Assembly (NCBI GenBank): GCA_964614265.1
Contig: CAZTKT010000002.1
Location: 1 to 38,792, forward strand
Length of the DNA: 38,792 bases
Direction of reading: 5' to 3'
Origin: an uncultured Candidatus Saccharibacteria bacterium
Lineage (GTDB): Bacteria; Patescibacteriota; Minisyncoccia; Phycocordibacterales; UBA918
Made by a program: the position numbers and the translations under genes. Below the pieces are notes generated by a model. The model was given only the letters and a program-made list of their open reading frames with translations. It was not told the DNA's origin and made no database searches. The number at the start of each line of letters is the position of its first letter. Position 1 is the stretch's first letter. This document shows positions 5,535-36,115 of this stretch, one piece after another.

Positions 5535-5546
5535 AGAGAAAAATAC

Positions 5547-5608
5547 ATGGCCTCAATCAAATCAATCAGACAGAGAATAAAGGGCGCGCAGAATACCGCG
5601 AAGATCAC
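5547..5608 (+). repeat. atpG 5'-end copy 1 (truncated remnant; open for 35 codons to the TGA at 5652-5654)
   Basis: 60/62 nt identical (by eye) to the start of the intact atpG at 7419-7480. It begins 12 nt after the atpA stop and encodes MASIKSIRQRIKGAQNTAKITK before diverging. Confidence 0.95.
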
Positions 5609-5615
5609 GAAAAAG

Positions 5616-5644
5616 TTGACATATCTTTACGCTATGTATAAACT
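5616..5644 (+). promoter_or_regulatory. Promoter-like TTGACA-17 nt-TAAACT, immediately after repeat copy 1
   Basis: The hexamers are at 5616-5621 and 5639-5644. The -10 hexamer ends 6 nt before the antitoxin ATG at 5651, and there is no SD. This suggests a leaderless or near-leaderless transcript. Confidence 0.5.
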
Positions 5645-5650
5645 ATATCC

Positions 5651-5926
5651 ATGACGACACAAATCGTATTCACCATTGATCCGAAAGTGAAAATGCAAGC
5701 GATGAAGCGCGCGAAGCAAGCGGGGGTTCCGTTCGCCTCCGTTTTGAAGCTGGCGACCAAGGCGTTCGCCGAGGGTAGATTTTCTGTGGACATTACGTCC
5801 GAAGAGCGCTTTAACGCGAAAACGAAGCGAGAAATCCGCGTGGCTCTGCGCGATGCTGAACAGGGGAAAAATATTCTATCGTTCAAGAATGCCGGGGAGA
5901 TGGACAAGTATCTTCTCTCGCTTTAG
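5651..5926 (+). CDS. Type II antitoxin, RelB/DinJ-like
   Basis: 91 aa. The N-terminal ribbon-helix-helix-like segment and the C-terminal part (NAKTKREIRVALRDAEQG...FKNAGEMDKYL) resemble the DinJ layout. It lies directly upstream of a RelE-like ORF. Confidence 0.7.
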   Translation: MTTQIVFTIDPKVKMQAMKRAKQAGVPFASVLKLATKAFAEGRFSVDITSEERFNAKTKREIRVALRDAEQGKNILSFKNAGEMDKYLLSL

Positions 5927-5935
5927 CAATCAGGT

Positions 5936-6193
5936 ATGGAAATTGAGTTTCATCGACTATTTCTTAAACAATATAAGAAGTTGCCGAGTACTATTCGCGT
6001 ACAGTTTGTCGAACGGAAAAACCTCTTTACACAGGAACCATTTCATCCGCTCCTGCACAACCATTCCGTCGACAGTGTATTCCCCGATTGCCGGAGCATT
6101 AATATCACGGGCGACTACCGGGCGATATTTAGACAACAAGATAAACAGGTACTATTCCTTCAGATTGGCATGCACAGCGAGTTATATAGATGA
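5936..6193 (+). CDS. Type II toxin, RelE/YafQ-family mRNA interferase-like
   Basis: 85 aa with the pattern HPLLHNH...RSINITGDYRAIF...LFLQIGMHSELY, typical of RelE/ParE-fold toxins. Confidence 0.75.
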   Translation: MEIEFHRLFLKQYKKLPSTIRVQFVERKNLFTQEPFHPLLHNHSVDSVFPDCRSINITGDYRAIFRQQDKQVLFLQIGMHSELYR

Positions 6194-6211
6194 AGGATAA
6201 AGAAATATAAT

Positions 6212-6270
6212 ATGACCTCAATTAAATCGATCAGACAGAGAATAAAGGGTGCGCAGAACACCGCGAAGAT
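6212..6270 (+). repeat. atpG 5'-end copy 2 (truncated remnant; open for 31 codons to the TGA at 6305-6307)
   Basis: 54/59 nt identical (by eye) to 7419-7477. It encodes MTSIKSIRQRIKGAQNTAK before diverging. Confidence 0.95.
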
Positions 6271-6284
6271 GGGCGTCCACGCGT

Positions 6285-6313
6285 TTGTCTTGGGTTTTTC
6301 ATCGTGATATACT
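6285..6313 (+). promoter_or_regulatory. Promoter-like TTGTCT-17 nt-TATACT, immediately after repeat copy 2
   Basis: The -10 hexamer ends 7 nt before the ATG at 6321, and there is no SD. Confidence 0.45.
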
Positions 6314-6320
6314 CGCAACT

Positions 6321-6536
6321 ATGGACACGATTGCTATCCCAAAAACCGAATACAAGCAACTACAACGCCAAGCGAGCGCCTATAAAAAAATGGCTCAAAA
6401 TCTGCATGAGTCGCTGTTACGGGATTCGGCCGGAGCGGTAGTCGCCGATTTTAGAGAGACAGGTTTATATGAAGAAGATTTTTTGTCTGATCTGGAAGAT
6501 GGACTGCGTAAATCTTCCTACGCGAAGAAAAAATGA
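6321..6536 (+). CDS. Putative type II antitoxin (71 aa)
   Basis: Small acidic ORF whose stop overlaps the start of the downstream RelE-like ORF (ATGA at 6533-6536). The start was moved from the track's 6249 to the ATG at 6321, downstream of the promoter-like site. The family is not recognised. Confidence 0.55.
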   Translation: MDTIAIPKTEYKQLQRQASAYKKMAQNLHESLLRDSAGAVVADFRETGLYEEDFLSDLEDGLRKSSYAKKK

Positions 6537-6781
6537 AAATCAAACTAATTCGGCCTGATGTTCTTCTCTATATCAAAGAGCACAATCTCTTGGCTAAATG
6601 GAAAAAGGCGAAGAAATTTTTTGAAACAGATGTGCGTCATTCAGCGCTTCGGATGGAATTATTGGAACCGGGGTGGCGTGGCATTTATTCTTTTCGTCTC
6701 GATCCAAAGTATCGCGCTCTCTTTTTTATAGATCAAGGGAAGGCTGAAGTCTTCAGAATTACAAACCACTACAAGAAATAA
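6533..6781 (+). CDS. RelE/ParE-superfamily toxin-like protein (82 aa)
   Basis: Pattern LEPGWRGIYSFRLDPKYRALFFIDQGKAEVFRITNHY, typical of RelE-fold toxins. It is translationally coupled to the upstream small ORF. Confidence 0.65.
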   Translation: MKIKLIRPDVLLYIKEHNLLAKWKKAKKFFETDVRHSALRMELLEPGWRGIYSFRLDPKYRALFFIDQGKAEVFRITNHYKK

Positions 6782-6788
6782 TTATACT

Positions 6789-7409
6789 ATGACTAGCCGC
6801 ACCCTAGCGAAAATTGCGCTCATACTGGCTATTTCCTTGATCGGAAGTATCATTTTTCTTTCTGGTTTTGGGAGGGGCACGTCAATCATGCAATTTAAAG
6901 GACAACCAATTTTGAAAGTAACGTACCCTCGCTTTTCCTATGTCTTTAGACGATATGGACAAACTTTCCCTGATCTTCCCACAGAAGCCTTCATAATTCC
7001 GATAGGAGACGCTTTGACGTTCCCTACCGGTGATTGCCAACTGGTATCTTTTACTGTATCTGACCCTAAAGAGCATGGCGAGTATGTACCTTCGCCAAAG
7101 TATGTACGTTCACCAGAGGAATACGAGGGTGCAGACACTGTAACACGAGCTGTAGTTGATACTGGATATAGCGAGGATCAGACAACTATAAATCATGAAT
7201 ATTCTAGTAAAGAAATTAACGGGAGAGAATTTTTTGTTTTTCGTGATACAAATAGCACTTATCCTGATCACGAGAGGGAACACTTGCTTACGTGGGTAGG
7301 TAAAACTATGATTAAGATAGTCTATGAGACGAAATCAATATATTGTGACGATCTTGCTGACATTCCTCAGATTTTAAACTCGTTACAGGTCATAGGAGGA
7401 CAAAAATAA
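6789..7409 (+). CDS. Hypothetical protein with an N-terminal membrane anchor (206 aa)
   Basis: Long ORF with an N-terminal hydrophobic helix (LAKIALILAISLIGSIIFLSGF). Visibly lower G+C than the atp genes. No family recognised. Confidence 0.6.
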   Translation: MTSRTLAKIALILAISLIGSIIFLSGFGRGTSIMQFKGQPILKVTYPRFSYVFRRYGQTFPDLPTEAFIIPIGDALTFPTGDCQLVSFTVSDPKEHGEYVPSPKYVRSPEEYEGADTVTRAVVDTGYSEDQTTINHEYSSKEINGREFFVFRDTNSTYPDHEREHLLTWVGKTMIKIVYETKSIYCDDLADIPQILNSLQVIGGQK

Positions 7410-7418
7410 CCAATAGAT

Positions 7419-8360: not shown

Positions 8361-8416
8361 TCACACCCGTGATAGTAAACAGTGTGGAGCATTAAATACA
8401 TAATATAAAATCATCT

Positions 8417-8764
8417 ATGGGTATCGAACAGAGTAGTTCCAACAGAAGTGAGGGTCGCTTGTCAAGCCAACAGGAGATTGCAACTAAAATGTCCAATTTA
8501 AGACAGTCAGCACTGTTTGATGAAAAAAAACCAGATCATGTTCTTATTGAGGTAAATGCTGTTTGCACAGAGATGGTGCAATACCTTGAGACCGGCAATC
8601 TTGAAAGAGTTATCAATTTTTTTGATAAAAATAATCCAGGACATGAAGTCGAGGCGCAGTTCAATGGGGTGGGGGGAAGACCTGCATTCGTAAAGATCTT
8701 AACAGAGATAGGGGTTTCTGTTCCTAATTTTTCAAATATTCCTGATGTTTCAAAGGTGGCATAA
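8417..8764 (+). CDS. Hypothetical protein (115 aa) inserted between atpG and atpD
   Basis: ORF with visibly lower G+C than its neighbours. TATAAA lies 7 nt upstream of the ATG. No family recognised. Confidence 0.5.
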   Translation: MGIEQSSSNRSEGRLSSQQEIATKMSNLRQSALFDEKKPDHVLIEVNAVCTEMVQYLETGNLERVINFFDKNNPGHEVEAQFNGVGGRPAFVKILTEIGVSVPNFSNIPDVSKVA

Positions 8765-8771
8765 TCGATAG

Positions 8772-10148
<1,377 letters not shown>

Positions 10149-15451: not shown

Positions 15452-16618
15452 CTACGGGAGAAATTGTTTGAACCAATTGAGAATGGAGTTTCCAGTTTTT
15501 CGTGCCATGCGGATCCCCGTATCTTCTTCTTGACCTCGTAATCCCCAAATACAAAGACCGTAGGCAACGGCGAACGAATTATCACGTACTTTGCTATTTT
15601 TTCCTCCGTCGATGACGGCAGTACGAGAGGGGAGGTGGAGTGTAGCCCGCGCCAAATCTTGCGTCGACAGCCCACCAGCTCCGCCACCGGTAAGAATAAT
15701 ACCTGCGGGGAGTAACCCATCACGTTTAATTTTTTTGAGGTGTGCACCAATGAGTTCAAATATATCAGCGAGTCGCGAGTCGACAATGTCGTCGAGTTTA
15801 CGCTTAGGATAGAGTGCAGTACCATGTCCACGTTTTATTTTTTCTGCCTCCTCTGGCGGTATCTTGAGACCGAGCGCAATGTCGTTGGTGATGTCGGTGG
15901 ATCCCACAGGGAATACTTTGAGCGAGATCGGCGTATGATTTTCAAAGACGACAATTGAGACGGTTTCTGCACCAATATTCGCAAGGACACACCCGGCACG
16001 ACGCTGGGCCTTTGTGAGTAGAGCAAGTGATCCTGCCAGTGGGGATGCCATCACATCATCCACAATGATTCCGGTACTCTCAATGGCACTCATAAGATCG
16101 TTGATGTGTTGTTCCAAGCAGGTGATGAAGAGGGTCTCAACGTCGAGTTTTGTACCCTTCATTCCGTGTGGTCGCCCCAATACTTTTTCATTATCCACAG
16201 AATATGAGAGTGGAATCGCATGAAGAATCTTACGGTTCGGTATCTTATCTTGGATGCGTTCTTCACTATCAGCCATTGCTTTCTCAATGTCTATTTGTGT
16301 TATCTCAGAATCAGCACGTGAGGTGATCACCTCACCATACGAGTGCATTTCATCAAGACCAATACCCCCAATCGAGAGATAGGCACGTTTCACTTCAACA
16401 CCGGCGGTTTTTTGGGCTTGCGTGACGGCGCTTCGGATGCTTTTGATAACGTCGCTTTCACTGACTACATACCCGTGGCGCATACCACGGGATTCGGTGA
16501 TACCCGTACCGATGATTTCTGGCAGTGCGCGTGAACTACTCGGTGATAATTGGCGTGCAATAACAACCTTCACCTGATAGGTGCCGACATCAATGCCTGT
16601 GATGATGTGATCCGCCAT
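15452..16618 (-). CDS. ftsA: Cell division protein FtsA
   Basis: Actin-fold motifs (IITGIDVGTYQVKVV, ILTGGGAG). It lies upstream of ftsZ. The ATG at 16618 is preferred over the TTG at 16642. Confidence 0.88.
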   Translation of the reverse strand: MADHIITGIDVGTYQVKVVIARQLSPSSSRALPEIIGTGITESRGMRHGYVVSESDVIKSIRSAVTQAQKTAGVEVKRAYLSIGGIGLDEMHSYGEVITSRADSEITQIDIEKAMADSEERIQDKIPNRKILHAIPLSYSVDNEKVLGRPHGMKGTKLDVETLFITCLEQHINDLMSAIESTGIIVDDVMASPLAGSLALLTKAQRRAGCVLANIGAETVSIVVFENHTPISLKVFPVGSTDITNDIALGLKIPPEEAEKIKRGHGTALYPKRKLDDIVDSRLADIFELIGAHLKKIKRDGLLPAGIILTGGGAGGLSTQDLARATLHLPSRTAVIDGGKNSKVRDNSFAVAYGLCIWGLRGQEEDTGIRMARKTGNSILNWFKQFLP

Positions 16619-17462: not shown

Positions 17463-17993
17463 ATGGGATTTGTGACTCCAGAGATAGTCGCGACACACTT
17501 TCACCTCCGCGAAGGAGACAGCGTTGGTGATTTTGCGGCGGGGAGCGGTTTCTTTGAGCCGGTGCTTTCCCGTGCAGTAGGGAAGGGTGGAAAGGTGTAT
17601 GCGTTTGAGATTCAGAAAGCACTCGTCGAGCGCATCGCCGATGTTGCACATAAGGGTCACCTTGATAATACCGAAGTGATCTGGTGCGATCTCGAGATGA
17701 AGGGAGGGTGCAAGCTGGAGGACGGGGTACTTGATGCCGGTCTTGTCTCAAATGCACTCTTTCAGTTTGATGATAAGGTATTAGCCCTCACTGAGATCCG
17801 TCGTTTGTTGCGTATGGGAGGCAAACTCCTCGTCATCGATTGGAGTGATTCATTCGGCGGTATGGGTCCGCATCACAGTGCAGTACTTACCGAAGCACAG
17901 GCAAAAACACTCATTGAGCAACAGTCGTTTGCCTTCGAGCGATCCTTCCCCGCGGGGGAACATCATTACGGTATGGCATTCCGGGCAGTATAG
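17463..17993 (+). CDS. Class I SAM-dependent methyltransferase
   Basis: Motif I GDSVGDFAAGSGFF and the post-I acidic residue (VYAFE). The start was trimmed to the ATG at 17463, because the longer track ORF overlaps rpsU. Confidence 0.75.
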   Translation: MGFVTPEIVATHFHLREGDSVGDFAAGSGFFEPVLSRAVGKGGKVYAFEIQKALVERIADVAHKGHLDNTEVIWCDLEMKGGCKLEDGVLDAGLVSNALFQFDDKVLALTEIRRLLRMGGKLLVIDWSDSFGGMGPHHSAVLTEAQAKTLIEQQSFAFERSFPAGEHHYGMAFRAV

Positions 17994-18010: not shown

Positions 18011-19327
18011 ATGACACTTCGACCATTTCAAATAATCCTCCTCGGCGTTTTTGTTGCGCTTGCGGTCGGCGGGCTCATCTTTTTTTCCGTGTACCGTGGT
18101 TCCAATGACAAAGCAACCGCCTATGGGCCGAGGGTAGAGATCTGGGGCACGCTCGATGGGCAGGCAATGTTAGGAGTCATTCAGCGTATTGGAGAGAGCG
18201 ATCAAGGATTTCGTGTGGTGAGCTATGTGCAAAAAGATCCGCGTAGTTTTCATGATGAGCTGGCAAACGCCATCGCAGAAAATAGAGGACCTGATGCCAT
18301 ACTACTCTCAAATGATCTACTCGTGCCTGAACGAGCAAAGTTGTACCCCATACCATATGACACACGTTCACTACGAGATATCAAAGATACTTATGTAGAA
18401 GGCGCCGAAATTTTCTCACTCTCCTCGGGCACCTATGGCTTCCCCTTTGCCGTTGATCCTCTGGTGATGTATTGGAACCGCGATATCTTCAGCACCGTAG
18501 GTCTCGTGTCCCCGCCAACCACCTGGGAGACGGCGGTGTCCCAGACGGTTCCTACGATCGTGAAAATCAGTCAAACATCCCCCTTTGCTCTGATACAATC
18601 AGCCCTCGCCTTTGGTGAGTATGCGAATGTCTCCAATGCACGAGAAGTACTTCTGATGCTTCTTCTCCAAGCAGGGAGCCCACTTATTTCTGAAACTAGT
18701 GCAGGGGGATACATCACATCGATCAATCAGTCTGCCACGGACTCTGGGCGTGCGCCCGCAGAGGCCGCAATTGATTTTTATACTCAGTTTTCAAACCCCT
18801 CTCGCCCCGTCTATAGTTGGAATCGCTCAATTATAAATGACCGTGAAGCCTTTCTCGCAGGAGAACTTGCGCTCTATTTTGGGCGGGGAAGCGAGTTGTC
18901 GGCTCTACGCGCAGGAAATCCCAATCTCAACTTCGATGCCGCCGCTGTCCCGCAGGGAGGTGGCGCGAGCGTGAAGAAGGGGTACGGTACATTCTATGCA
19001 CTTTCGCCACTGCGTAGTAGCCCCAACTTCGCGGGGACATACCTTGTGCTCAATATCCTTGCGAATAGTGACAACGCCCATGCACTCGCCGACGCATGGG
19101 GACTGGTGCCAGTGCATCGGAACACACTTGCGGTTGGTGTGTCTGATCCGGTACGGCAGACGATGTATACGACCGCACTCTTTGTCCACGGGTTTCTCAA
19201 TCCGAACCCGGCAGTAACTGAGGGTATTATTAGGACGATGATCGAGGATGTGACGTCGGGGCGGATCAGTGCTAGCCAGTCAGCCCAAGATGCCGCCAAT
19301 CGATTTTCCCAAGCATTACAAATATGA
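18011..19327 (+). CDS. Extracellular solute-binding-protein-like protein with an N-terminal membrane anchor
   Basis: N-terminal TM helix. SBP family-1-like stretches follow (IEIWGTLDG..., GPDAILLSND, GTYGFPFAVDPLVMYWNRDIF...PPTTWE). Confidence 0.65.
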   Translation: MTLRPFQIILLGVFVALAVGGLIFFSVYRGSNDKATAYGPRVEIWGTLDGQAMLGVIQRIGESDQGFRVVSYVQKDPRSFHDELANAIAENRGPDAILLSNDLLVPERAKLYPIPYDTRSLRDIKDTYVEGAEIFSLSSGTYGFPFAVDPLVMYWNRDIFSTVGLVSPPTTWETAVSQTVPTIVKISQTSPFALIQSALAFGEYANVSNAREVLLMLLLQAGSPLISETSAGGYITSINQSATDSGRAPAEAAIDFYTQFSNPSRPVYSWNRSIINDREAFLAGELALYFGRGSELSALRAGNPNLNFDAAAVPQGGGASVKKGYGTFYALSPLRSSPNFAGTYLVLNILANSDNAHALADAWGLVPVHRNTLAVGVSDPVRQTMYTTALFVHGFLNPNPAVTEGIIRTMIEDVTSGRISASQSAQDAANRFSQALQI

Positions 19328-19334
19328 TCCCAAT

Positions 19335-19832
19335 ATGATACCAAACAAAAAATACCTCGTGACCCTCTTCGCGATGATACTTCTTTTCAGTGGCGCCTTT
19401 CTCTACACCAGTGCTGTCGTTTCAGCACAGATTCCTGCCCCCGGAGACAAACCACCAGCGCCACCTGTCGCTCCCCCAACTCAACCACCAGGTGGAACTA
19501 CTCAACCACCAGGTGGAGCTGTCGCTCCCCCAACTCAACCACCAGGTGGAACTACTCGTCCAGACGAAAGACTTTTCAACCCCCTCAAAGTCAATTCAAT
19601 CGGTGAACTCCTCAGCCTCATTCTCAATGTCGTGACGATATTTGCCGTCCCAATCGTTGTCTTTTTCCTCATCTATTCAGGTTTTCTCTACGTCACTGCC
19701 CAAGGCAAACCAGAAGCGATCCAAAAGGCAACCACTGCATTCACCTGGACCATTGTCGGCGGTCTCATTGTACTCGGCGCCAACACACTGCTCACCATTA
19801 TTCAAAAAACCGTCGAGTCCTTACATCAATGA
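19335..19832 (+). CDS. VirB2/TrbC-like (T4SS-type) pilin paralog 1 with a Pro-rich repeat linker
   Basis: Signal peptide ending VSAQ, then a PPTQPPGGTT repeat linker, then two hydrophobic helices separated by a short charged loop (TAQGKPEAIQK). The ATG at 19335 is 7 nt after the upstream stop. Confidence 0.7.
   Translation: MIPNKKYLVTLFAMILLFSGAFLYTSAVVSAQIPAPGDKPPAPPVAPPTQPPGGTTQPPGGAVAPPTQPPGGTTRPDERLFNPLKVNSIGELLSLILNVVTIFAVPIVVFFLIYSGFLYVTAQGKPEAIQKATTAFTWTIVGGLIVLGANTLLTIIQKTVESLHQ
19467..19556 (+). repeat. In-frame tandem DNA repeat (36-nt unit at 19467 and 19521, 54-nt period; 16-mer tcaaccaccaggtgga three times)
   Basis: Read directly from the sequence. It encodes VAPPTQPPGGTTQPPGGAVAPPTQPPGGTT. 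Confidence 0.9.
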
Positions 19833-20206
19833 CTATGTTCATATTCTCACTCTCTACGCTCCGCAAGGGCTTTGAAAAACGACACCGGCGACGAATTTCT
19901 GGACTCATGGTCTTTGTATGCGCCACATTTCTCCTCCCCAAATTTGTGCATGCACAGGCGGCCCCACAAGACTTCGCATCACTCGTTGGTAGTTTTCTTG
20001 GTATTATTGCCTTAATCATCCCAGTACTTTTCGGCCTATCTTTAATCGTCTTCATCTGGGGACTGATCAGTGGATGGATTCTCAATGTAGGAGATGAAAA
20101 AAGCATAGAAAATGGCAAAAAGACCGCGTTTGCTGGTATTATCGGTCTTGTCGTTATGGCCGGAGTCTGGGGCATCGTCGCCATCTTTAAAAGCTCCTTC
20201 TTTTGA
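19829..20206 (+). CDS. VirB2/TrbC-like pilin paralog 2
   Basis: ATGA overlap with paralog 1. Signal-like segment ending VHAQ, two hydrophobic helices, and a loop NVGDEKSIENGKK. FIWG and VWG motifs are shared with paralogs 3 and 4. Confidence 0.65.
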   Translation: MTMFIFSLSTLRKGFEKRHRRRISGLMVFVCATFLLPKFVHAQAAPQDFASLVGSFLGIIALIIPVLFGLSLIVFIWGLISGWILNVGDEKSIENGKKTAFAGIIGLVVMAGVWGIVAIFKSSFF

Positions 20207-20239
20207 TCTGTGGACATGATCCCTTATCCACAGCACTCG

Positions 20240-20268
20240 TTGGCATGTCGGTGTCAGTGAGCTATACT
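20240..20268 (+). promoter_or_regulatory. Sigma70-like promoter TTGGCA-17 nt-TATACT upstream of pilin paralogs 3-4
   Basis: Hexamers at 20240-20245 and 20263-20268, preceded by a 7-bp hairpin (ctgtgga...tccacag) after paralog 2. Confidence 0.5.
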
Positions 20269-20301
20269 GAAGCCACGAGACATTAATCATTAATCGTATC
20301 T

Positions 20302-20673
20302 ATGAAAAAAGTTCTATCAATAACTAGTGTCGCAGGGGTGTTGTATGTACTCCCACTAGTGGCCTCCGCCGAGTTTTTTGGTGGGAAAATCAAAGAATTC
20401 GTGGTCGACTTTATTGCATTTATCAATGGGACAGCAGCCCCTCTTATAATCGCTCTCGCTTTTCTGTTTTTCATCTGGGGGGTCTTTCGCTACTTCATTT
20501 TTGGTGGTGCTGATGAAGAATCTCGAGAAAAGGGTAAAAGTGCGATGATCTGGGGGATTGTTGGATTTGTACTCATTGTATCTCTCTGGGGATTGATCAA
20601 TGTTATCGCAAGTGGTCTTGGGTTTAAAGACACGACGCTTGAGAACATTCCGAAAGTGGGGGGTACGCGTTAA
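20302..20673 (+). CDS. VirB2/TrbC-like pilin paralog 3
   Basis: Signal peptide ending VASA, helix ...FLFFIWGVFRYF, loop GGADEESREKGKS, helix MIWGIVGFVLIVSLWGLI. Confidence 0.7.
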   Translation: MKKVLSITSVAGVLYVLPLVASAEFFGGKIKEFVVDFIAFINGTAAPLIIALAFLFFIWGVFRYFIFGGADEESREKGKSAMIWGIVGFVLIVSLWGLINVIASGLGFKDTTLENIPKVGGTR

Positions 20674-20685
20674 TGTGACTACCAC

Positions 20686-20973
20686 ATGAATGTCGCATAT
20701 GCGGTAACCGCAGAAGAGATTGCAGGACCGTTTCTCAGAAGTTTCGAAAAAGCAATCCTCTTTCCGTTGATATCTCTACTGATGGGCATAGCACTCCTCA
20801 TGTTTCTTTGGGGAGTGTTTCGCTATATCAGCAACGCAGAGGGAGACGAGGCGCGTGAGACAGGGAAGCGACACATGCTCTTTGGTATTATTGGTCTCAT
20901 CATCATGACCTCTGCAGTCGCCATCCTAACCATCGCAACCAACACCTTTGGTGTCCCACCCCCGACTCCATAA
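20686..20973 (+). CDS. VirB2/TrbC-like pilin paralog 4 (no signal peptide)
   Basis: It has the same two-helix core (LLMFLWGVFRYIS, loop NAEGDEARETGKR, helix MLFGIIGLIIMT). Only 6 residues (MNVAYA) sit where a signal peptide would be, and an in-frame stop at 20671-20673 prevents upstream extension. Confidence 0.65.
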   Translation: MNVAYAVTAEEIAGPFLRSFEKAILFPLISLLMGIALLMFLWGVFRYISNAEGDEARETGKRHMLFGIIGLIIMTSAVAILTIATNTFGVPPPTP

Positions 20974-21039
20974 CCACATAAAAACTTATCGAGAGTAGAG
21001 TACACCACAACTTGTGGATAAAAATAGATGAAAATAGAT

Positions 21040-21076: not shown

Positions 21077-22252
21077 TCAACGCACCCTCGTCCACTGGAT
21101 GTGGGCGAGGAACGACCTCTCGTCTTTAGATCTGATTTTTAGTACCCCGTCCTTCGCATGAAGGACACCCCCGACGAGAGTGGCGTCAACATAATCAACC
21201 CTACCACTATCAACCACCGCCGGGCGGAGGTCCCACTTCCACCCGTTCGCGTACTGGGCGAAGGTGATGGGTGGTTGAGAGCGTGGGGGCAGAGTAATCT
21301 GTTCCCACGGGGTTTGATACCCCACCGCAGGCGCTACGGCCGCCGGTCGAGGTTGAAGCCCCTCTTTTGGTTTTGGCGTCTCTGTACCCACCCACTGACC
21401 GAACAGCAGAACGGAAAGAACAATCATTGCTCCGCCAAAAGCCTTGACGAACCCTTTCTTAGCAAACAGCAACCCAATACCGCCAAGGAACAGTCCGGCG
21501 ATAAGCCACCACCAGACGAGTCCTCCGGTGGGGAAGAACTTGCTGAGCGAGAATCCAGAATTTACTCCCCACGCCCAGTCCCCGACGATGAGTTGGTATC
21601 CCGTCATGATGATGGCGATACCAAGCAATGCTCCGCCACCAGCCTTCATGGACTTGTTCCCGACACTCATGAAGATGATCGAGCCCAATATCATGCTCGC
21701 GTAGAGGACCCATTGCCAGGGTCTCGTCTTCGGGAGTGAGACAGGGACCCGCAGTGGTCCAAGACACTTTTCTTGAGCTCTTGCGATCTCATTGAGGACC
21801 ACGAGAGCTGGGTTTTCCCCAGCTATGAGCGTTGTCCCCGACGGGATGAGTTTCTTAAGTGCCGCTGGGTCATCTTTCGCTCCCCTGTATTTTTGTAGGG
21901 AATCTGCCATTTCTTGATCACAGATCTTTTTCTTTTGGGTGTCTGTGAAGGCTGTTGGGTTACTCGTCTGGATCCCTACAAACAACTTTATTCCATCGCG
22001 CACATCATCTGGCATCGTAAACCAGATGATGGGTGCAACGGCGCAGAGTCCTAACAATACGAGCCCTCTCGTGGCCCATTGTCGAACGCTTGGGTTCTCA
22101 AAATATTTTCCGGCGATGAGCCATAGCCCAACATATGCTGTGATAACGATGGCTGTGCCGAACGTCCCGAGGCCTGTATTGACCAAGATGATCGATATAC
22201 AGGCCAGAACTGAAAATATAACCACCACACCACCCCAAAAACCTTGAGTCAT
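21077..22252 (-). CDS. Polytopic membrane protein, unknown function (391 aa)
   Basis: By eye: several N-terminal hydrophobic helices, a ~95-aa soluble loop, a second cluster of helices, a Pro-rich linker and a ~70-aa C-terminal domain. Confidence 0.7.
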   Translation of the reverse strand: MTQGFWGGVVVIFSVLACISIILVNTGLGTFGTAIVITAYVGLWLIAGKYFENPSVRQWATRGLVLLGLCAVAPIIWFTMPDDVRDGIKLFVGIQTSNPTAFTDTQKKKICDQEMADSLQKYRGAKDDPAALKKLIPSGTTLIAGENPALVVLNEIARAQEKCLGPLRVPVSLPKTRPWQWVLYASMILGSIIFMSVGNKSMKAGGGALLGIAIIMTGYQLIVGDWAWGVNSGFSLSKFFPTGGLVWWWLIAGLFLGGIGLLFAKKGFVKAFGGAMIVLSVLLFGQWVGTETPKPKEGLQPRPAAVAPAVGYQTPWEQITLPPRSQPPITFAQYANGWKWDLRPAVVDSGRVDYVDATLVGGVLHAKDGVLKIRSKDERSFLAHIQWTRVR

Positions 22253-22277
22253 GTTCCCCCCTTTTTTTGCGTGTTCG

Positions 22278-23516
22278 CTAAGCTTTCTTAGAGAACTTTT
22301 TTAGCACGAACTCCATCCCGAGATCAGTCGCCATGATGCGAGCAATCTTCTGCCACTCAGATTCTCCTGATGGTCCAACTCGAGCCTTGGTGGCGTCAGT
22401 CACAGGGATGGCACCTGTGTCTATAGCCGTCCGTCCACCCCTGCCTCCCGCGAGGGTACTGACAGTGATACGAGCTTTATAGTAGGCCCATCTGATGTCA
22501 TCCAACCATGCCCATATCCAGATGAGCGGAAGCACAATAAAGATGGCCAACAGGAGAGCGATAAACCAGAACAACAGCCAAAACCTGTGTCTCTCTCTTG
22601 AAAGATCCTTCTCTGGGACGACGGGATTTATCTTTGTCATCTGTCGTTCTAACAAAATTTTCTCCTTCCCTAAAGGAGTCGCGTTGTGGTACTTTTCGTA
22701 CGCGTCATTGTACGAAAGAATTGGTGTAGAGACGAGAGACGACAGCCACCACACCACACAAAATCCGAGTGCGATGGTACAGAGGACGGCAACGATGTTT
22801 CCAACCCAACTTTGTTTGGGTCTCACTGGCCACGACTCTATCCACTTACTGTTGCCTCCAATGTCCACACGGAAAGAACAAAAGTCTTTGTGTGCAAGCG
22901 GATTTGGCGTGGTGCCTTTGGGTGGGTATTGGTATGTACCATCCGCATCAGTTCTCGTTGTCCAGCGGTTGTCGATCGTCTCATTATACACTTCTACAAG
23001 TATCCCTCCCCGTGCAGGCGTGATGGTCCCCACAATTATTGGTGACCCATCTACCCCAGCTTTATGTGCCGTAAAGGAACTGACAGCTGGACGAGGTTCA
23101 CTAATTTTTGTTGCTTTTGGATCAGTTACCTCCACTGTCTTGGTCTCTTGAAGACTGTAACCAGAGACAGACGCTTGTACTGAGTATGTTCCTGGGGTTA
23201 CATCCAGGAACCTTACATCGGCTCTTCCATTTTCCCCCAACTCCTCACTTCCAGAGACTCTATTGCCCTCGGACCCGATAGCGACAAAGTCTATCATCAG
23301 TGGTGTGGGGGTGATCGGCCACGCTTTCCCCGAGTCTTCATTTGTCACCACCACAGATATGTCTATGACAGATGTGTTGGTGGCAGTGACACTCAAGGAC
23401 AGTTCCGCCCCTACTCTGTCAATTCGTCCCTTAGCCATTTTCCTCCCCTTTGATCTGAGTTTGACTCGCCTCACAAGTGAGGCGAGAGGTTCGTCCGTAC
23501 CTATATTGATTGTCAA
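22278..23516 (-). CDS. Membrane protein with N-terminal beta-sandwich (Ig / carboxypeptidase-regulatory-like) repeats, unknown function (412 aa)
   Basis: Segments such as DVTPGTYSVQASVSGYSLQETKTVEVTD and TDADGTYQYPP look like small beta-sandwich domains. Two hydrophobic helices follow (IVAVLCTIALGFCVVWWL; FWLLFWFIALLLAIFIVLPLIWIWAWL). No signal peptide was seen. Confidence 0.65.
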   Translation of the reverse strand: MTINIGTDEPLASLVRRVKLRSKGRKMAKGRIDRVGAELSLSVTATNTSVIDISVVVTNEDSGKAWPITPTPLMIDFVAIGSEGNRVSGSEELGENGRADVRFLDVTPGTYSVQASVSGYSLQETKTVEVTDPKATKISEPRPAVSSFTAHKAGVDGSPIIVGTITPARGGILVEVYNETIDNRWTTRTDADGTYQYPPKGTTPNPLAHKDFCSFRVDIGGNSKWIESWPVRPKQSWVGNIVAVLCTIALGFCVVWWLSSLVSTPILSYNDAYEKYHNATPLGKEKILLERQMTKINPVVPEKDLSRERHRFWLLFWFIALLLAIFIVLPLIWIWAWLDDIRWAYYKARITVSTLAGGRGGRTAIDTGAIPVTDATKARVGPSGESEWQKIARIMATDLGMEFVLKKFSKKA

Positions 23517-32617: not shown

Positions 32618-35600
32618 TTAGACCTGTTGATTTTTTCTTGCTTGAGCGCTTGTTTTTGCAGGCTTCCACCCTCTCGCTTGTTGCATCTTAGCGTATGCAT
32701 CATTGATGATGCGACTGATAGCTGTCTTCTGCTTTGCCACCTCTGGATCTTGCTCACCGTCTGGGTGGTACTTTTTTCGTAGGAGTCGCCACGCTTTGTG
32801 TGCCTCTGCAGAGGTGGCATCTTTCCTGAGTCCAAGTACTGCATATGGGTCGAGTTTTTCCCAATGGTCAATATTCAATTGTAACTTTTCTGTTTCTTTT
32901 TGTCCTGTTGCTTTTATCTCCTCGGTTTTTTCAGTTTGTCCTGAGTTGTTCTCTGGGGGAGGTGGGGGAGTGGGTTCTGCTTCTGCACGTCTTCGAGGAT
33001 TTCGAACCCTCTCTAACGGGGTTCTTCCCATCACGGGTATGAACGCGGGGGGTAGAACATCTGCAGAGGCTGGAGCTGGAGGAACAGGATCTAATACTTC
33101 AGGTATCGTGGTGGGGCGCTCTGTGATATTAGTGATAGTCGTAGAGCGAGATACCGGCACCTCCGTCGCGAGCTGTGGTATTCCAGAGCCACTGTGTGTT
33201 GCGAGAACCGCAAACCGTGCTGTACCATCTGGCATTTTTCCGACGACCTGTCCAATTTCTGCAAATTTTCCTTTAAATTCCACTTTCCCATCAGCACCTT
33301 TACTGAAAAACATTTTTCCTATCTCGCTGTCTGGGTTGATCGAAATTTTCCCATCGGCTGTTATGGGGACTTCAACGACGTGTGATTGTGTATTACGGCT
33401 TAAAGACAAGAGTAATTTTAATTTACCGGCCTTTAGCTCATTTTGGATGTTGGGCGACAGAGCTCCACGCGCAGATGAGCCTCCAGTAGCCATCCTGTGT
33501 ATGTCAAAGGCGTACCCACCTTGTGGATCTATCCCCGTGCCTTTTTCACCACCCCATTGTAGTTTTAATTCATTTTTGTCAGCTATAGAGGTTTTATTGT
33601 CGTACCAGGTTCTGTGAATTTTCTGAAAGAGCTCTGGATGAGCTTCGGTGAATTCCTGTGAAGTCACGGTAACACTCTCTGTTGCAGTGATTGACTTCAT
33701 TACCTCAGTCACTTCCATGCCGCGTGCCTTCAACATGTCCCGTGACTCTTGGAGAAGTCTGCCATCAGTTCCAAAGTGAACATCGGTGACTGGCGCACTA
33801 TTTTTGAAGACTGTAAATGTATGTTCCGGTGCGCCCGGTGTTGCTACCATGTCGATTTTCCCTGCTGTGTACGTGACTGTTGGACCTTGTGGAGTATGTA
33901 ATGTTGCCATCGCGGGAGTTCTATCACCTTTCCACCAGCCACGGAGACCTTCGAGTGCAGTGAGGCTTTGAGGATTTGGGTTGTTGTCCATACCGATCGC
34001 ATGTTCGAGTAAGCCAACCTTCTCATTACTGACAAATGCCGATGCTTCTTGCCCGAGGGCACCGATCGTGAGACCGCTCAGAACGGCTATTCCTACAGTA
34101 CGTCCCACCCTTCTGTTCTTCATTTTTTTGAAGATTTCGTCCTTCTTCTCCATACTTTCATCGCCGTCCTCTCGTAATTGACGAGTTTGTTCAGTCACCG
34201 TTGAGGCTACAAAGGTGTCAAAGGATGTACCGGGTGGCAGTGTAATGGTGCCATCAGTAACTTTTTGACGGAGCGCAACCTTTGCTTCTGCGCAGGCGAT
34301 ATCGAGTGCCATACGTTCCTGTTCAACTGATTTGAAGTCTGAGTAGGCAAGCAGGTCGATGTGCTCTGTATCGGACAGCAGAATGCGCGATCGTGCTTCG
34401 GAGAGGGCATTGAGTGCGGCATAGAACTCTTCCTGAGTGTTCACCTCACTCGAGAGACTTTTGATGGATTCAGTGAGTGATACGGCGGAGACGGTCTTAT
34501 AGATGGCCTGTTCCATCTGTGTACGACGCTTCATGTCCGGATCCATCTCTTTCCCTTTCGCTCGTTCTCTGGCGTGTTGACGCCTCTCATCTTTTACTTT
34601 TCGGTTTTCTCTTGCTCCCGCTATGACTCCCCCATATGCTGCTGATAGCCCCAATGTTCCCCATGCGAGCACACGACTTCTGGCGGCACTTTGTGACAGC
34701 CTGACGCCGACTGCATAGGCGATAGCGACGCCAGAGGCAATAGTGGTTTCATTGACCAAGCTACCCAACTTTGTTGACTGGATTTTTTCAGCAATACGAT
34801 CGCCGACAGTGTGCTGTGCTTCTGTACGTACTCCCAGTTTTGCTTTCCCGATTACGAGTTCAATCTCTGTATCTATGTCTTCTATGCGTGCACCATGTTC
34901 CACTGCATTTTTTGCATTTTGCGCGATCTCACAGATGCTGTCGGTGTGATTGACAGCCTGCTGTAGTTGTTCACCACTCAGACCGGTTGCTGCAGCAATA
35001 ATTCTATGTCGCTCCTCGGTAAAAGAGGCATCATCTATACTGCCACTGGCATATTCTCGGATCAAGGCGCGAACTTCGGTATTGAGCGTACTATTTGTAT
35101 CAGTCTCGATTGTTCGCTTTTCTCCTGCATGGATGATGTCCTCGTCTTCATATTCTTGTATAAAGCGATCAATGACAGCGTTCATTGCTTCGGTATGTGC
35201 AGATTGCTCCGCGCCTTCTCCCACATAGAGATTACCCGACGCAACGATATCTTTTTTTGCAAGAGCGATTTCTTTTTGTCGGTAGTATTCACGAGCAAGA
35301 TTATGTTTCCAGATCTTTTGGAACACCCCCTTAAATCCTTTGAGCTCTGCTTTTGAGGCAGTCATCCGCTCATCCGCCATATCACGAGCCTGTTCTTCGA
35401 GCGCACCGCTGGTGTCGATGATCGCGACACGTTGTTTTTTCTTTTTAGGTGCTCCCTCGTTTGTTGTGACCAAGTTTTGTTCTTCTGGTGGCAGCTGGGA
35501 TGGTACACGTACCAAAGCATTTGTTTCAGTTGGCACATTTTCTGGTGGGAGTGGTACTTTTGTCTCAGTAGCTTCTGCTCCAGCATTCGCGGCATCTTCT

Positions 35601-36115
35601 GCTGGTGGGTGAGGCACGGTATCAGGACCCTCTACTGGTACCCCCTCCTTTAGATCAGGGCTGGCGGTGAGAGGTGTTTCGCTGACGATTGTGAGATTGC
35701 CCTCGGGAGAGATCTTGAGACGAGCCTTCGGGTCTCTAGATTGCAATTGGAGTTCTTTTGTGAGAGCTCCTTGTAGGGTCGAGAGATGCTCTTCTATCTC
35801 TTTAATTCTACCTCGGCCGGTTACTTCCGGCATATCAACGGTAATTCCTCCACTGGGAGTGTTTATGAGCATACCGGCAGCAGATATTTCGCCACCAAAG
35901 AATCCTTCTGAAGCCAACGTGGCACTAAAAAAAATCCCACTTGACGTCTGGGTGATCTCGATTGTTTGGAGTTTTGCTCGTCTAGGTCTACCCTCAAGTG
36001 TTGCACCAATAATACCTTTCAGCACTTCCATATCAACCAGAGATCCCTCAGGTCCCTTTTCTTCGGTGGGTGTTTGCTCTTGCGCGCGAGCTTTTCTTGC
36101 AGATTCAAATCTCAT
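32618..36115 (-). CDS. Large (1165 aa) membrane protein with a C-terminal DnaJ J-domain
   Basis: The C-terminal sequence DPYAVLGLRKDATSAEAHKAWRLLRKKYHPDGE... carries the HPD motif. Three hydrophobic segments were seen by eye in the middle, and there are Pro-rich linkers. The remainder is not recognised. Confidence 0.8.
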   Translation of the reverse strand: MRFESARKARAQEQTPTEEKGPEGSLVDMEVLKGIIGATLEGRPRRAKLQTIEITQTSSGIFFSATLASEGFFGGEISAAGMLINTPSGGITVDMPEVTGRGRIKEIEEHLSTLQGALTKELQLQSRDPKARLKISPEGNLTIVSETPLTASPDLKEGVPVEGPDTVPHPPAEDAANAGAEATETKVPLPPENVPTETNALVRVPSQLPPEEQNLVTTNEGAPKKKKQRVAIIDTSGALEEQARDMADERMTASKAELKGFKGVFQKIWKHNLAREYYRQKEIALAKKDIVASGNLYVGEGAEQSAHTEAMNAVIDRFIQEYEDEDIIHAGEKRTIETDTNSTLNTEVRALIREYASGSIDDASFTEERHRIIAAATGLSGEQLQQAVNHTDSICEIAQNAKNAVEHGARIEDIDTEIELVIGKAKLGVRTEAQHTVGDRIAEKIQSTKLGSLVNETTIASGVAIAYAVGVRLSQSAARSRVLAWGTLGLSAAYGGVIAGARENRKVKDERRQHARERAKGKEMDPDMKRRTQMEQAIYKTVSAVSLTESIKSLSSEVNTQEEFYAALNALSEARSRILLSDTEHIDLLAYSDFKSVEQERMALDIACAEAKVALRQKVTDGTITLPPGTSFDTFVASTVTEQTRQLREDGDESMEKKDEIFKKMKNRRVGRTVGIAVLSGLTIGALGQEASAFVSNEKVGLLEHAIGMDNNPNPQSLTALEGLRGWWKGDRTPAMATLHTPQGPTVTYTAGKIDMVATPGAPEHTFTVFKNSAPVTDVHFGTDGRLLQESRDMLKARGMEVTEVMKSITATESVTVTSQEFTEAHPELFQKIHRTWYDNKTSIADKNELKLQWGGEKGTGIDPQGGYAFDIHRMATGGSSARGALSPNIQNELKAGKLKLLLSLSRNTQSHVVEVPITADGKISINPDSEIGKMFFSKGADGKVEFKGKFAEIGQVVGKMPDGTARFAVLATHSGSGIPQLATEVPVSRSTTITNITERPTTIPEVLDPVPPAPASADVLPPAFIPVMGRTPLERVRNPRRRAEAEPTPPPPPENNSGQTEKTEEIKATGQKETEKLQLNIDHWEKLDPYAVLGLRKDATSAEAHKAWRLLRKKYHPDGEQDPEVAKQKTAISRIINDAYAKMQQARGWKPAKTSAQARKNQQV

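Follow-up and report, generated by a model that had tools for sequence, protein, structure and literature searches.

What is the function of four small, consecutive open reading frames (ORFs) that resemble secretion pilins and have no secretion ATPase in their neighborhood? This question is raised by a 38,792-nt stretch of DNA from an uncultured Candidatus Saccharibacteria bacterium (assembly GCA_964614265.1, contig CAZTKT010000002.1, positions 1 to 38,792), which was analyzed as a whole and is called the window here. The initial annotation had described the four ORFs (P1 to P4) as divergent VirB2/TrbC-like pilin paralogs, and it had proposed that their divergence reflected either antigenic or host-contact variation or heteropolymeric filaments. 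A comparison with related loci indicated that, at the sequence level, the four paralogs are ancient orthologue groups tied to their position in the array. Because of this positional orthology, and because the pilins diverge no faster than the adjacent binding protein, the comparison argues for four distinct, non-redundant subunits rather than antigenic or host-range diversification.

All four ORFs are present on the plus strand. P1 starts 7 nt past the stop (19327) of a solute-binding-like protein gene and overlaps P2 by ATGA, as had been described. Hydropathy analysis showed that each of P1-P4 has two strongly hydrophobic helices with a short charged loop containing GK between them, in agreement with the shared layout that had been proposed. 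A signal peptide had been assigned to all four, and, judged by eye and by hydropathy, P1, P2 and P3 have an N-terminal hydrophobic leader with an AxA-like site at its end. P4 has no leader and its ATG is preceded by an in-frame stop 12 nt upstream. The F(I/L)WG motif was found in P2, P3 and P4, while P1 has LIYSGF at that place. Pairwise identity inside the array was 22-35%, and similarity between P1 and P2 was undetectable by BLASTP. The AlphaFold2 (AF2) model of P3 (predicted local distance difference test score, pLDDT, of 78) contained a signal helix and a long helical hairpin formed by residues 27-65 and 72-105. The Pro/Thr/Gly linker of P1 contains an in-frame repeat, at which the assembly contigs of the source sample (run X1) break. 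In a second drinking-water study, one contig (run X7) omits exactly 54 nt, corresponding to one repeat unit, by joining position 19464 to 19519. The length of the P1 linker therefore varies between populations.

The assignment to the T4SS-pilin family (T4SS, type IV secretion system) was tested with Pfam family PF18895 (T4SS_pilin), which has a gathering threshold of 26.6 bits. In the Pfam scan P1, P3 and P4 scored 31.8, 45.7 and 31.3 bits, respectively, all above this threshold, and P2 scored 19.9 bits. P2 is nevertheless a member of the family despite its own sub-threshold score, because 25/30 of its position-2 orthologues match PF18895 and because its orthologue group aligned with the P3 group in hhalign with 99.7% probability (E 4e-25). 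The profile of the P1 group also matched that of the P3 group (96.9%, E 1e-10). The family claim of the initial annotation was thus upheld for all four proteins, for P2 by way of its orthologues. The NCBIfam model NF045849 (Mbov_0395) gave 36.3, 33.8 and 19.3 bits for P1, P3 and P4, which is below its cut-off of 40. A tblastn search of P3 against 72,556 plasmids returned no match.

To place the array in an evolutionary context, an alignment of the binding protein was used to fetch 80 loci (37-61% identity), each from a different species of Paceibacteria; Kaiserbacteria, Nomurabacteria and Zambryskibacteria are among them. Every ORF in these loci was searched with a hidden Markov model (HMM) built from the four cores of the window, and the pilin matches all had E ≤ 2e-10. 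For the positional comparison, 30 complete four-copy arrays were used, giving 870 comparisons per position. The best match was found at the same array position in 841/870 (position 1), 756/870 (position 2), 830/870 (position 3) and 806/870 (position 4) comparisons, which is ∼93% of cases overall. The window pilins themselves had their best match at their own position in 28/29 (P1), 28/29 (P3) and 27/29 (P4) of the other four-copy arrays. Identity between orthologues was 44-49%, compared with ∼30% between paralogs within arrays.

Each position also retains its own traits. Position-1 proteins keep the leader, the low-complexity linker and an NPL motif; position-2 proteins are short and often have no leader; position-3 proteins have a leader and a C-terminal tail; and position-4 proteins are leaderless and 90-105 aa long in most genomes. 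In nine other displayed four-copy arrays the position-4 proteins have no cleavable signal peptide and start near the first hydrophobic helix. As the leaderless position 4 is kept in relatives, the missing leader of P4 shows a conserved design and not decay. The NPL and WG motifs and the G-D-E...GK loop persist across the 80 species.

The rate of divergence was compared over 351 genome pairs. Pilin identity was 42-49% versus 43% for the binding protein; over the same pairs, identity was 54% for the methyltransferase encoded upstream, 52% for RbfA, 67% for IF2 and 81% for GyrA. On a shorter time scale, contigs of a related strain from the second study carried 0-3% single-nucleotide polymorphisms (SNPs) in the pilins and the binding protein alike. 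These results leave antigenic or host-contact diversification unsupported, and heteropolymeric filaments of distinct subunits fit best among the alternatives that had been put forward.

The array was found to be part of a larger conserved cassette. A same-strand pilin array directly follows the binding-protein stop in 75/80 loci, with 1-8 pilin ORFs per array and ≥2 in all but two. In four of the five loci without an array, the contig ends just past the binding-protein gene. The gap between the binding-protein gene and the first pilin is -4 nt in 15/74 loci and otherwise mostly 0-20 nt, and gaps within the arrays are mostly -4 to +20 nt. The copy number of complete arrays, a comparison that had been suggested earlier, ranges from 1 to 8 and peaks at 4 (30/61), so that the window array of four is the most common form of the cassette. 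In 71/82 loci the binding-protein gene is immediately preceded by a methyltransferase gene, with a 4-nt overlap in 25/65 cases. In the window, ybeY-ftsA-ftsZ takes the place of the usual upstream gyrA block, but the methyltransferase gene still accompanies the cassette. The conserved order, deduced from sequence, is S-adenosylmethionine (SAM)-dependent methyltransferase, binding protein, pilin 1, pilin 2, internal promoter region with the DnaA-box-like motif, pilin 3 and pilin 4. The co-transcription with both upstream genes, which the initial annotation had called unexplained, thus reflects a deeply conserved operon architecture. The locus was detected only in DNA runs of drinking-water metagenomes and in none of the RNA runs. 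The coordinates of the features are given in Table 1.

Table 1. Features of the pilin cassette and its surroundings in the window.
Feature	Position	Strand	Remarks
Class I SAM-dependent methyltransferase, first cassette gene	17463-17993	+	176 aa; Pfam Methyltransf_31, Methyltransf_11, Ubie_methyltran
Membrane-anchored MalE-fold solute-binding-like protein	18011-19327	+	438 aa; Pfam SBP_bac_8 and AF2 model
Pilin paralog P1 (position-1 type)	19335-19832	+	165 aa; signal peptide, Pro/Thr/Gly-rich repeat linker, NPL motif, two-helix core
P1 linker repeat	19467-19556	+	in-frame; length varies between populations
Pilin paralog P2 (position-2 type)	19829-20206	+	125 aa; ATGA overlap with P1
DnaA-box-like motif TTATCCACA	20224-20232	+	exact match; conserved in gap before position-3 pilin
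Promoter-like site TTGGCA-17-TATACT	20240-20268	+	10/12 consensus positions; -10-like TATACT at 20263-20268
Pilin paralog P3 (position-3 type)	20302-20673	+	123 aa; signal peptide, core, C-terminal tail
Pilin paralog P4 (position-4 type)	20686-20973	+	95 aa; no signal peptide
Perfect 15-bp-stem hairpin between array and convergent gene	21039-21072		fold z = -6.3

The two genes upstream of the pilins could be assigned to known folds. The binding protein matched SBP_bac_8 with 51.8 bits (threshold 27; E 1.3e-13) and gave a PDB profile match with E 5e-13. In its AF2 model (pLDDT 90.9), residues 5-27 form a transmembrane helix ahead of a two-lobe fold, and Foldseek matched the model to maltodextrin- and manno-oligosaccharide-binding proteins with E 1e-20. 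The protein is strongly conserved, with >845 homologues found. Neither the window nor the conserved neighbors in 82 loci contained an ATP-binding cassette (ABC) permease or ATPase near the binding-protein gene. The nearest solved structure of the methyltransferase was 3dh0, a generic SAM methyltransferase.

In ∼10 species (loci L017, L019, L037-L040, L054, L057, L060 and L086) an extra two-helix pilin-like ORF was observed between gyrA and the methyltransferase gene, ∼600-1000 nt upstream of the binding-protein gene, so that the methyltransferase gene is flanked by pilin-like genes. These extra ORFs were matched by the HMM of the window cores with E 1e-12 to 1e-17 and are not detected by PF18895; they are probably divergent pilin members.

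The 95-nt gap ahead of P3 holds the promoter-like site from which the initial annotation had derived a separate promoter for P3-P4. The site exists and is the top promoter-like match of the region. The number of promoter-like sites in the region equals the shuffle expectation (5 versus 4.2), and the -35 hexamer TTGGCA was rejected as a conserved element, as it was found in 5/30 gaps of relatives. Conservation in this gap was instead found in the motif TTATCCACA, which is the canonical DnaA box sequence. In relatives it takes the form TTAT(C/A)CACA(G) and is followed, 29-30 nt or 38 nt after the box, by a conserved -10-like hexamer. With ≤1 mismatch, TTATNCACA gave 68 matches in the internal array gaps of 56 loci versus 10.0 ± 3.2 in dinucleotide shuffles, and in coding sequence the box motif occurred at about chance level. 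The motif was also considered as the arm of an RNA hairpin or as a terminator; this was rejected because complementary partners are not enriched (6/60 versus 2.1 expected, and 11 versus 8.8). Exact copies of TTATCCACA in the 38.8 kb are located at 20224-20232 (+), 21013-21021 (-) and 16191-16199 (+), where ∼0.3 would be expected. The P3-P4 pair lies between two of these copies, which are inverted relative to each other, and only the copy at 20224-20232 is conserved in relatives.

The strong hairpin at which the array had been said to end was confirmed as a structure. However, its T-tract is on the minus strand only, and for this reason it chiefly terminates the convergent gene at 21077-22252.

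The initial annotation had recognized no VirB4, VirD4, VirB6 or VirB10 gene in the window, which was confirmed when all its substantial ORFs were scanned against Pfam. The flanks of the related loci likewise contained no large Walker-A protein and no T4SS part recognizable by Pfam. In a survey of Patescibacteria, VirB4 was present in 2,417/3,035 assemblies, while pilins were near virB4 in only 1,135/1,948 assemblies and away from it in ∼40% (PMC12102498). The same survey recorded 441 arrays of 2-11 pilin genes in 3,035 genomes. Their mean identity was 25%, they came mainly from Microgenomatia and Saccharimonadia, and the authors suggested a role in host-range adaptation. A table of the survey lists two cassette-bearing genomes (loci L022 and L082) as VirB4-positive, and the survey places virB4 beside dnaA/dnaN in Paceibacteria (PMC12102498). 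The essential T4SS cluster of Southlakia epibionticum holds six PF18895 pilins (PMC10633639; reviewed in PMC12857230), and in cultured Paceibacteria-type cells the unknown genes with the highest expression include those for T4SS pilins (PMC10936435). Patescibacteria were already known to carry arrays of divergent VirB2-like pilins, in many cases at a distance from virB4 (Wang 2023; Quinonero-Coronel 2025). No published description of a fixed partnership between a pilin array, a binding protein and a methyltransferase was found, and no solute-binding, SBP_bac or PF13416 term was found in the main text or the available supplements of the survey (PMC12102498).

We favor, as somewhat probable, the explanation that P1-P4 are four anciently separated PF18895 subunits of a VirB2-type surface structure, which is assembled by a T4SS encoded elsewhere and at which the binding protein also acts. 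Each of P1-P4 would form a two-helix hairpin in the cytoplasmic membrane, with its charged GK loop on the inner side; P1-P3 would enter by Sec and a cleavable leader and P4 by direct insertion. A VirB4/VirB6-type apparatus whose genes lie at another site, comparable to the essential S. epibionticum T4SS, would then assemble them into a mixed surface fiber or conduit with one major and several specialized subunits. The tethered binding protein may act at the same surface structure, for example in host glycan recognition, and the transcription of pilins 3 and 4 may be tuned by a TTATCCACA-binding protein, most simply DnaA. Reviews speculate that the pilus is a conduit for uptake from the host. 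A further-reaching proposal, in which the methyltransferase, a glycan-recognizing MalE-fold head and a heteromeric pilin conduit form one previously undescribed surface apparatus of Paceibacteria that captures or takes up host material, with synthesis of the distal subunits tied to replication via the DnaA box, is tentative and in our judgment unlikely.

Several observations weigh against the favored T4SS-assembled structure. The TrbC/VirB2 model PF04956 (threshold 27.9) reached 15.2 bits for P1 (E 0.026) and 13.6 bits for P3 (E 0.081), both below threshold, and gave no match for P2 and P4. A PDB profile search with the position-3 alignment returned no solved pilins, and Foldseek found nothing below E = 1 between the P3 model and solved pilins, although a simple helical hairpin discriminates poorly. 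For P1-P4, homology with the pilins of solved structure (VirB2, TraA, TrbC) is therefore not demonstrable, and the putative link of P1-P4 to classical VirB2 rests on Pfam family membership. Binding of DnaA before P3 would be attributed by identity of TTATCCACA with the canonical box only. VirB4, VirB6, VirB3 and TrsD were absent from the window and from the 8 kb around the cassette in all 80 species. In addition, a table of the survey shows a PF18895 gene next to virB4 within the T4SS clusters of Paceibacteria themselves (PMC12102498); the cassette is therefore a second pilin locus, and it could serve something other than the T4SS.

One such alternative, possible but on the unlikely side, is an autonomous, T4SS-independent hetero-oligomeric membrane complex, a channel or receptor platform of four hairpin proteins, which works directly with the tethered MalE-fold protein in binding-protein-dependent uptake or sensing without an ABC transporter. 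In its favor, the pilins are strictly linked to the binding protein in 75/80 species, often with translational coupling, the four subunits have a fixed stoichiometry and order, no T4SS or ABC gene was found nearby in any locus, and the T4SS clusters of Paceibacteria have a separate adjacent pilin. A transporter made of VirB2-like hairpins has no known precedent, however, and the cassette encodes no energy-coupling component. Moreover, the PF18895 family is embedded in the Saccharibacteria T4SS cluster and essential there, and a fusion of binding protein and pilin was not seen in 82 loci.

The reading of the array as a diversifying repertoire of interchangeable major pilins for antigenic or host-range variation, as proposed for the VirB2 paralogs of Bartonella and Anaplasma, is very unlikely for this locus. 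It was suggested for Patescibacteria arrays by the published survey (PMC12102498) and is in line with the low identity within the array (22-35%), the copy number of 1-8 between species and the variable P1 linker. It is largely refuted by the finding that each position is a class-wide orthologue group in ∼93% of comparisons. The pilins also diverge no faster than the adjacent binding protein, their strain-level SNP density (0-3%) is like that of the binding protein, and traits specific to a position are kept, among them the missing leader at position 4 and the linker with NPL motif at position 1. That P1-P4 are generic small proteins with two transmembrane helices, whose resemblance to pilins is compositional, has hardly any probability left. 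Hydrophobic two-helix proteins do match many membrane families weakly, and the structural searches by PDB profile and Foldseek gave no solved pilin. Against this, three of the four proteins exceed a curated Pfam threshold, the group profiles match each other with E 4e-25 and 1e-10, and the NPL, WG and G-D-E...GK loop motifs are maintained across 80 species.

The window covers almost all of its contig, which measures 38,981 nt. Its remaining part is ordinary chromosome, with a serine recombinase, an ATP synthase operon, trxB, ftsZ, ftsA, ybeY, rbfA and infB, together with a NifS-like gene, clpB, a DEAD helicase and a DnaJ-domain giant. On the 3′ side of the array, two convergent membrane-protein genes occupy 21077-23516 on the minus strand. 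No homologues of these genes were found by jackhmmer in the same slot of 60 related loci, where there are nearly always two minus-strand genes for other unknown membrane or SPFH/Band-7 proteins, and a related 2024 strain had no contig coverage over 21747-23400. The slot looks like a hypervariable site beside a conserved operon. The ATP synthase operon is interrupted at 5535-7418 by three ORFs (115, 95 and 206 aa) without Pfam match between the alpha and gamma genes, and a further 115-aa ORF lies at 8361-8777 between the gamma and beta genes. Directly upstream of this operon, at the contig edge, 32-1894 encodes a large serine recombinase with Resolvase, Recombinase and zinc-ribbon domains; this gene may be what is left of an integrated element, or mark the border of one. 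At 32618-36115 on the minus strand a 1,165-aa protein is encoded of which only a C-terminal DnaJ domain is recognizable; a DUF5663 gene follows it.

A large part of bacterial diversity belongs to the Patescibacteria, which live attached to host cells. A T4SS with a series of pilins is essential in their sole genetically tractable species. The window as a single instance is ordinary, being the commonest cassette form. In the class-wide operon that it represents, four non-redundant pilins are tied to a receptor of the sugar-binding type and to an enzyme that may act in modification. The resulting questions can be tested, namely which subunits build the structure, which ligand the receptor binds and whether expression follows DnaA. 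The operon also corrects the tempting antigenic-variation reading for this lineage.

Among known systems, the arrays of S. epibionticum (SEML1_0014-0019) and the 441 surveyed arrays belong to the same Pfam family, PF18895, as the window array (PMC10633639, PMC12102498). Like it, they are tandem sets of 2-11 sequence-divergent, structurally alike small pilins of monoderm ultrasmall bacteria, with ∼25-30% identity within arrays and pilins often away from virB4. The Southlakia array, however, lies inside a T4SS cluster beside VirB4 and VirB6 and has no binding protein, whereas genes for a methyltransferase and a MalE-fold binding protein head the window array, which has no T4SS gene nearby. The window array differs from the surveyed arrays as a fixed, ordered set of four orthologue groups across Paceibacteria. 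The TrbC/VirB2/TraA conjugative pilins of diderm T4SS (PF04956) resemble the window pilins in their small size, their leader peptide, their pair of hydrophobic helices and their short basic loop; for both, a pool of subunits in the membrane is presumed to precede assembly. In contrast to these pilins, the window proteins match their family below threshold (E 0.03-0.08), show no profile or fold match to solved pilins, come from an organism without an outer membrane and form four non-identical subunits, one or two of them leaderless. The Mbov_0395 protein of a Mycoplasma integrative and conjugative element (ICE; NF045849), the weakly similar best NCBIfam match of P1, P3 and P4, is likewise a pilin-like two-helix protein of a monoderm, but the window scores (19-36 bits) are below the cut-off of 40 and the array has housekeeping chromosomal neighbors and no ICE context. 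The T4SS of Bartonella and Anaplasma share with the window several tandem virB2-like genes of differing sequence; their paralogs are read as variable surface antigens, whereas the copies in the window are ancient, conserved in position and not fast-evolving.

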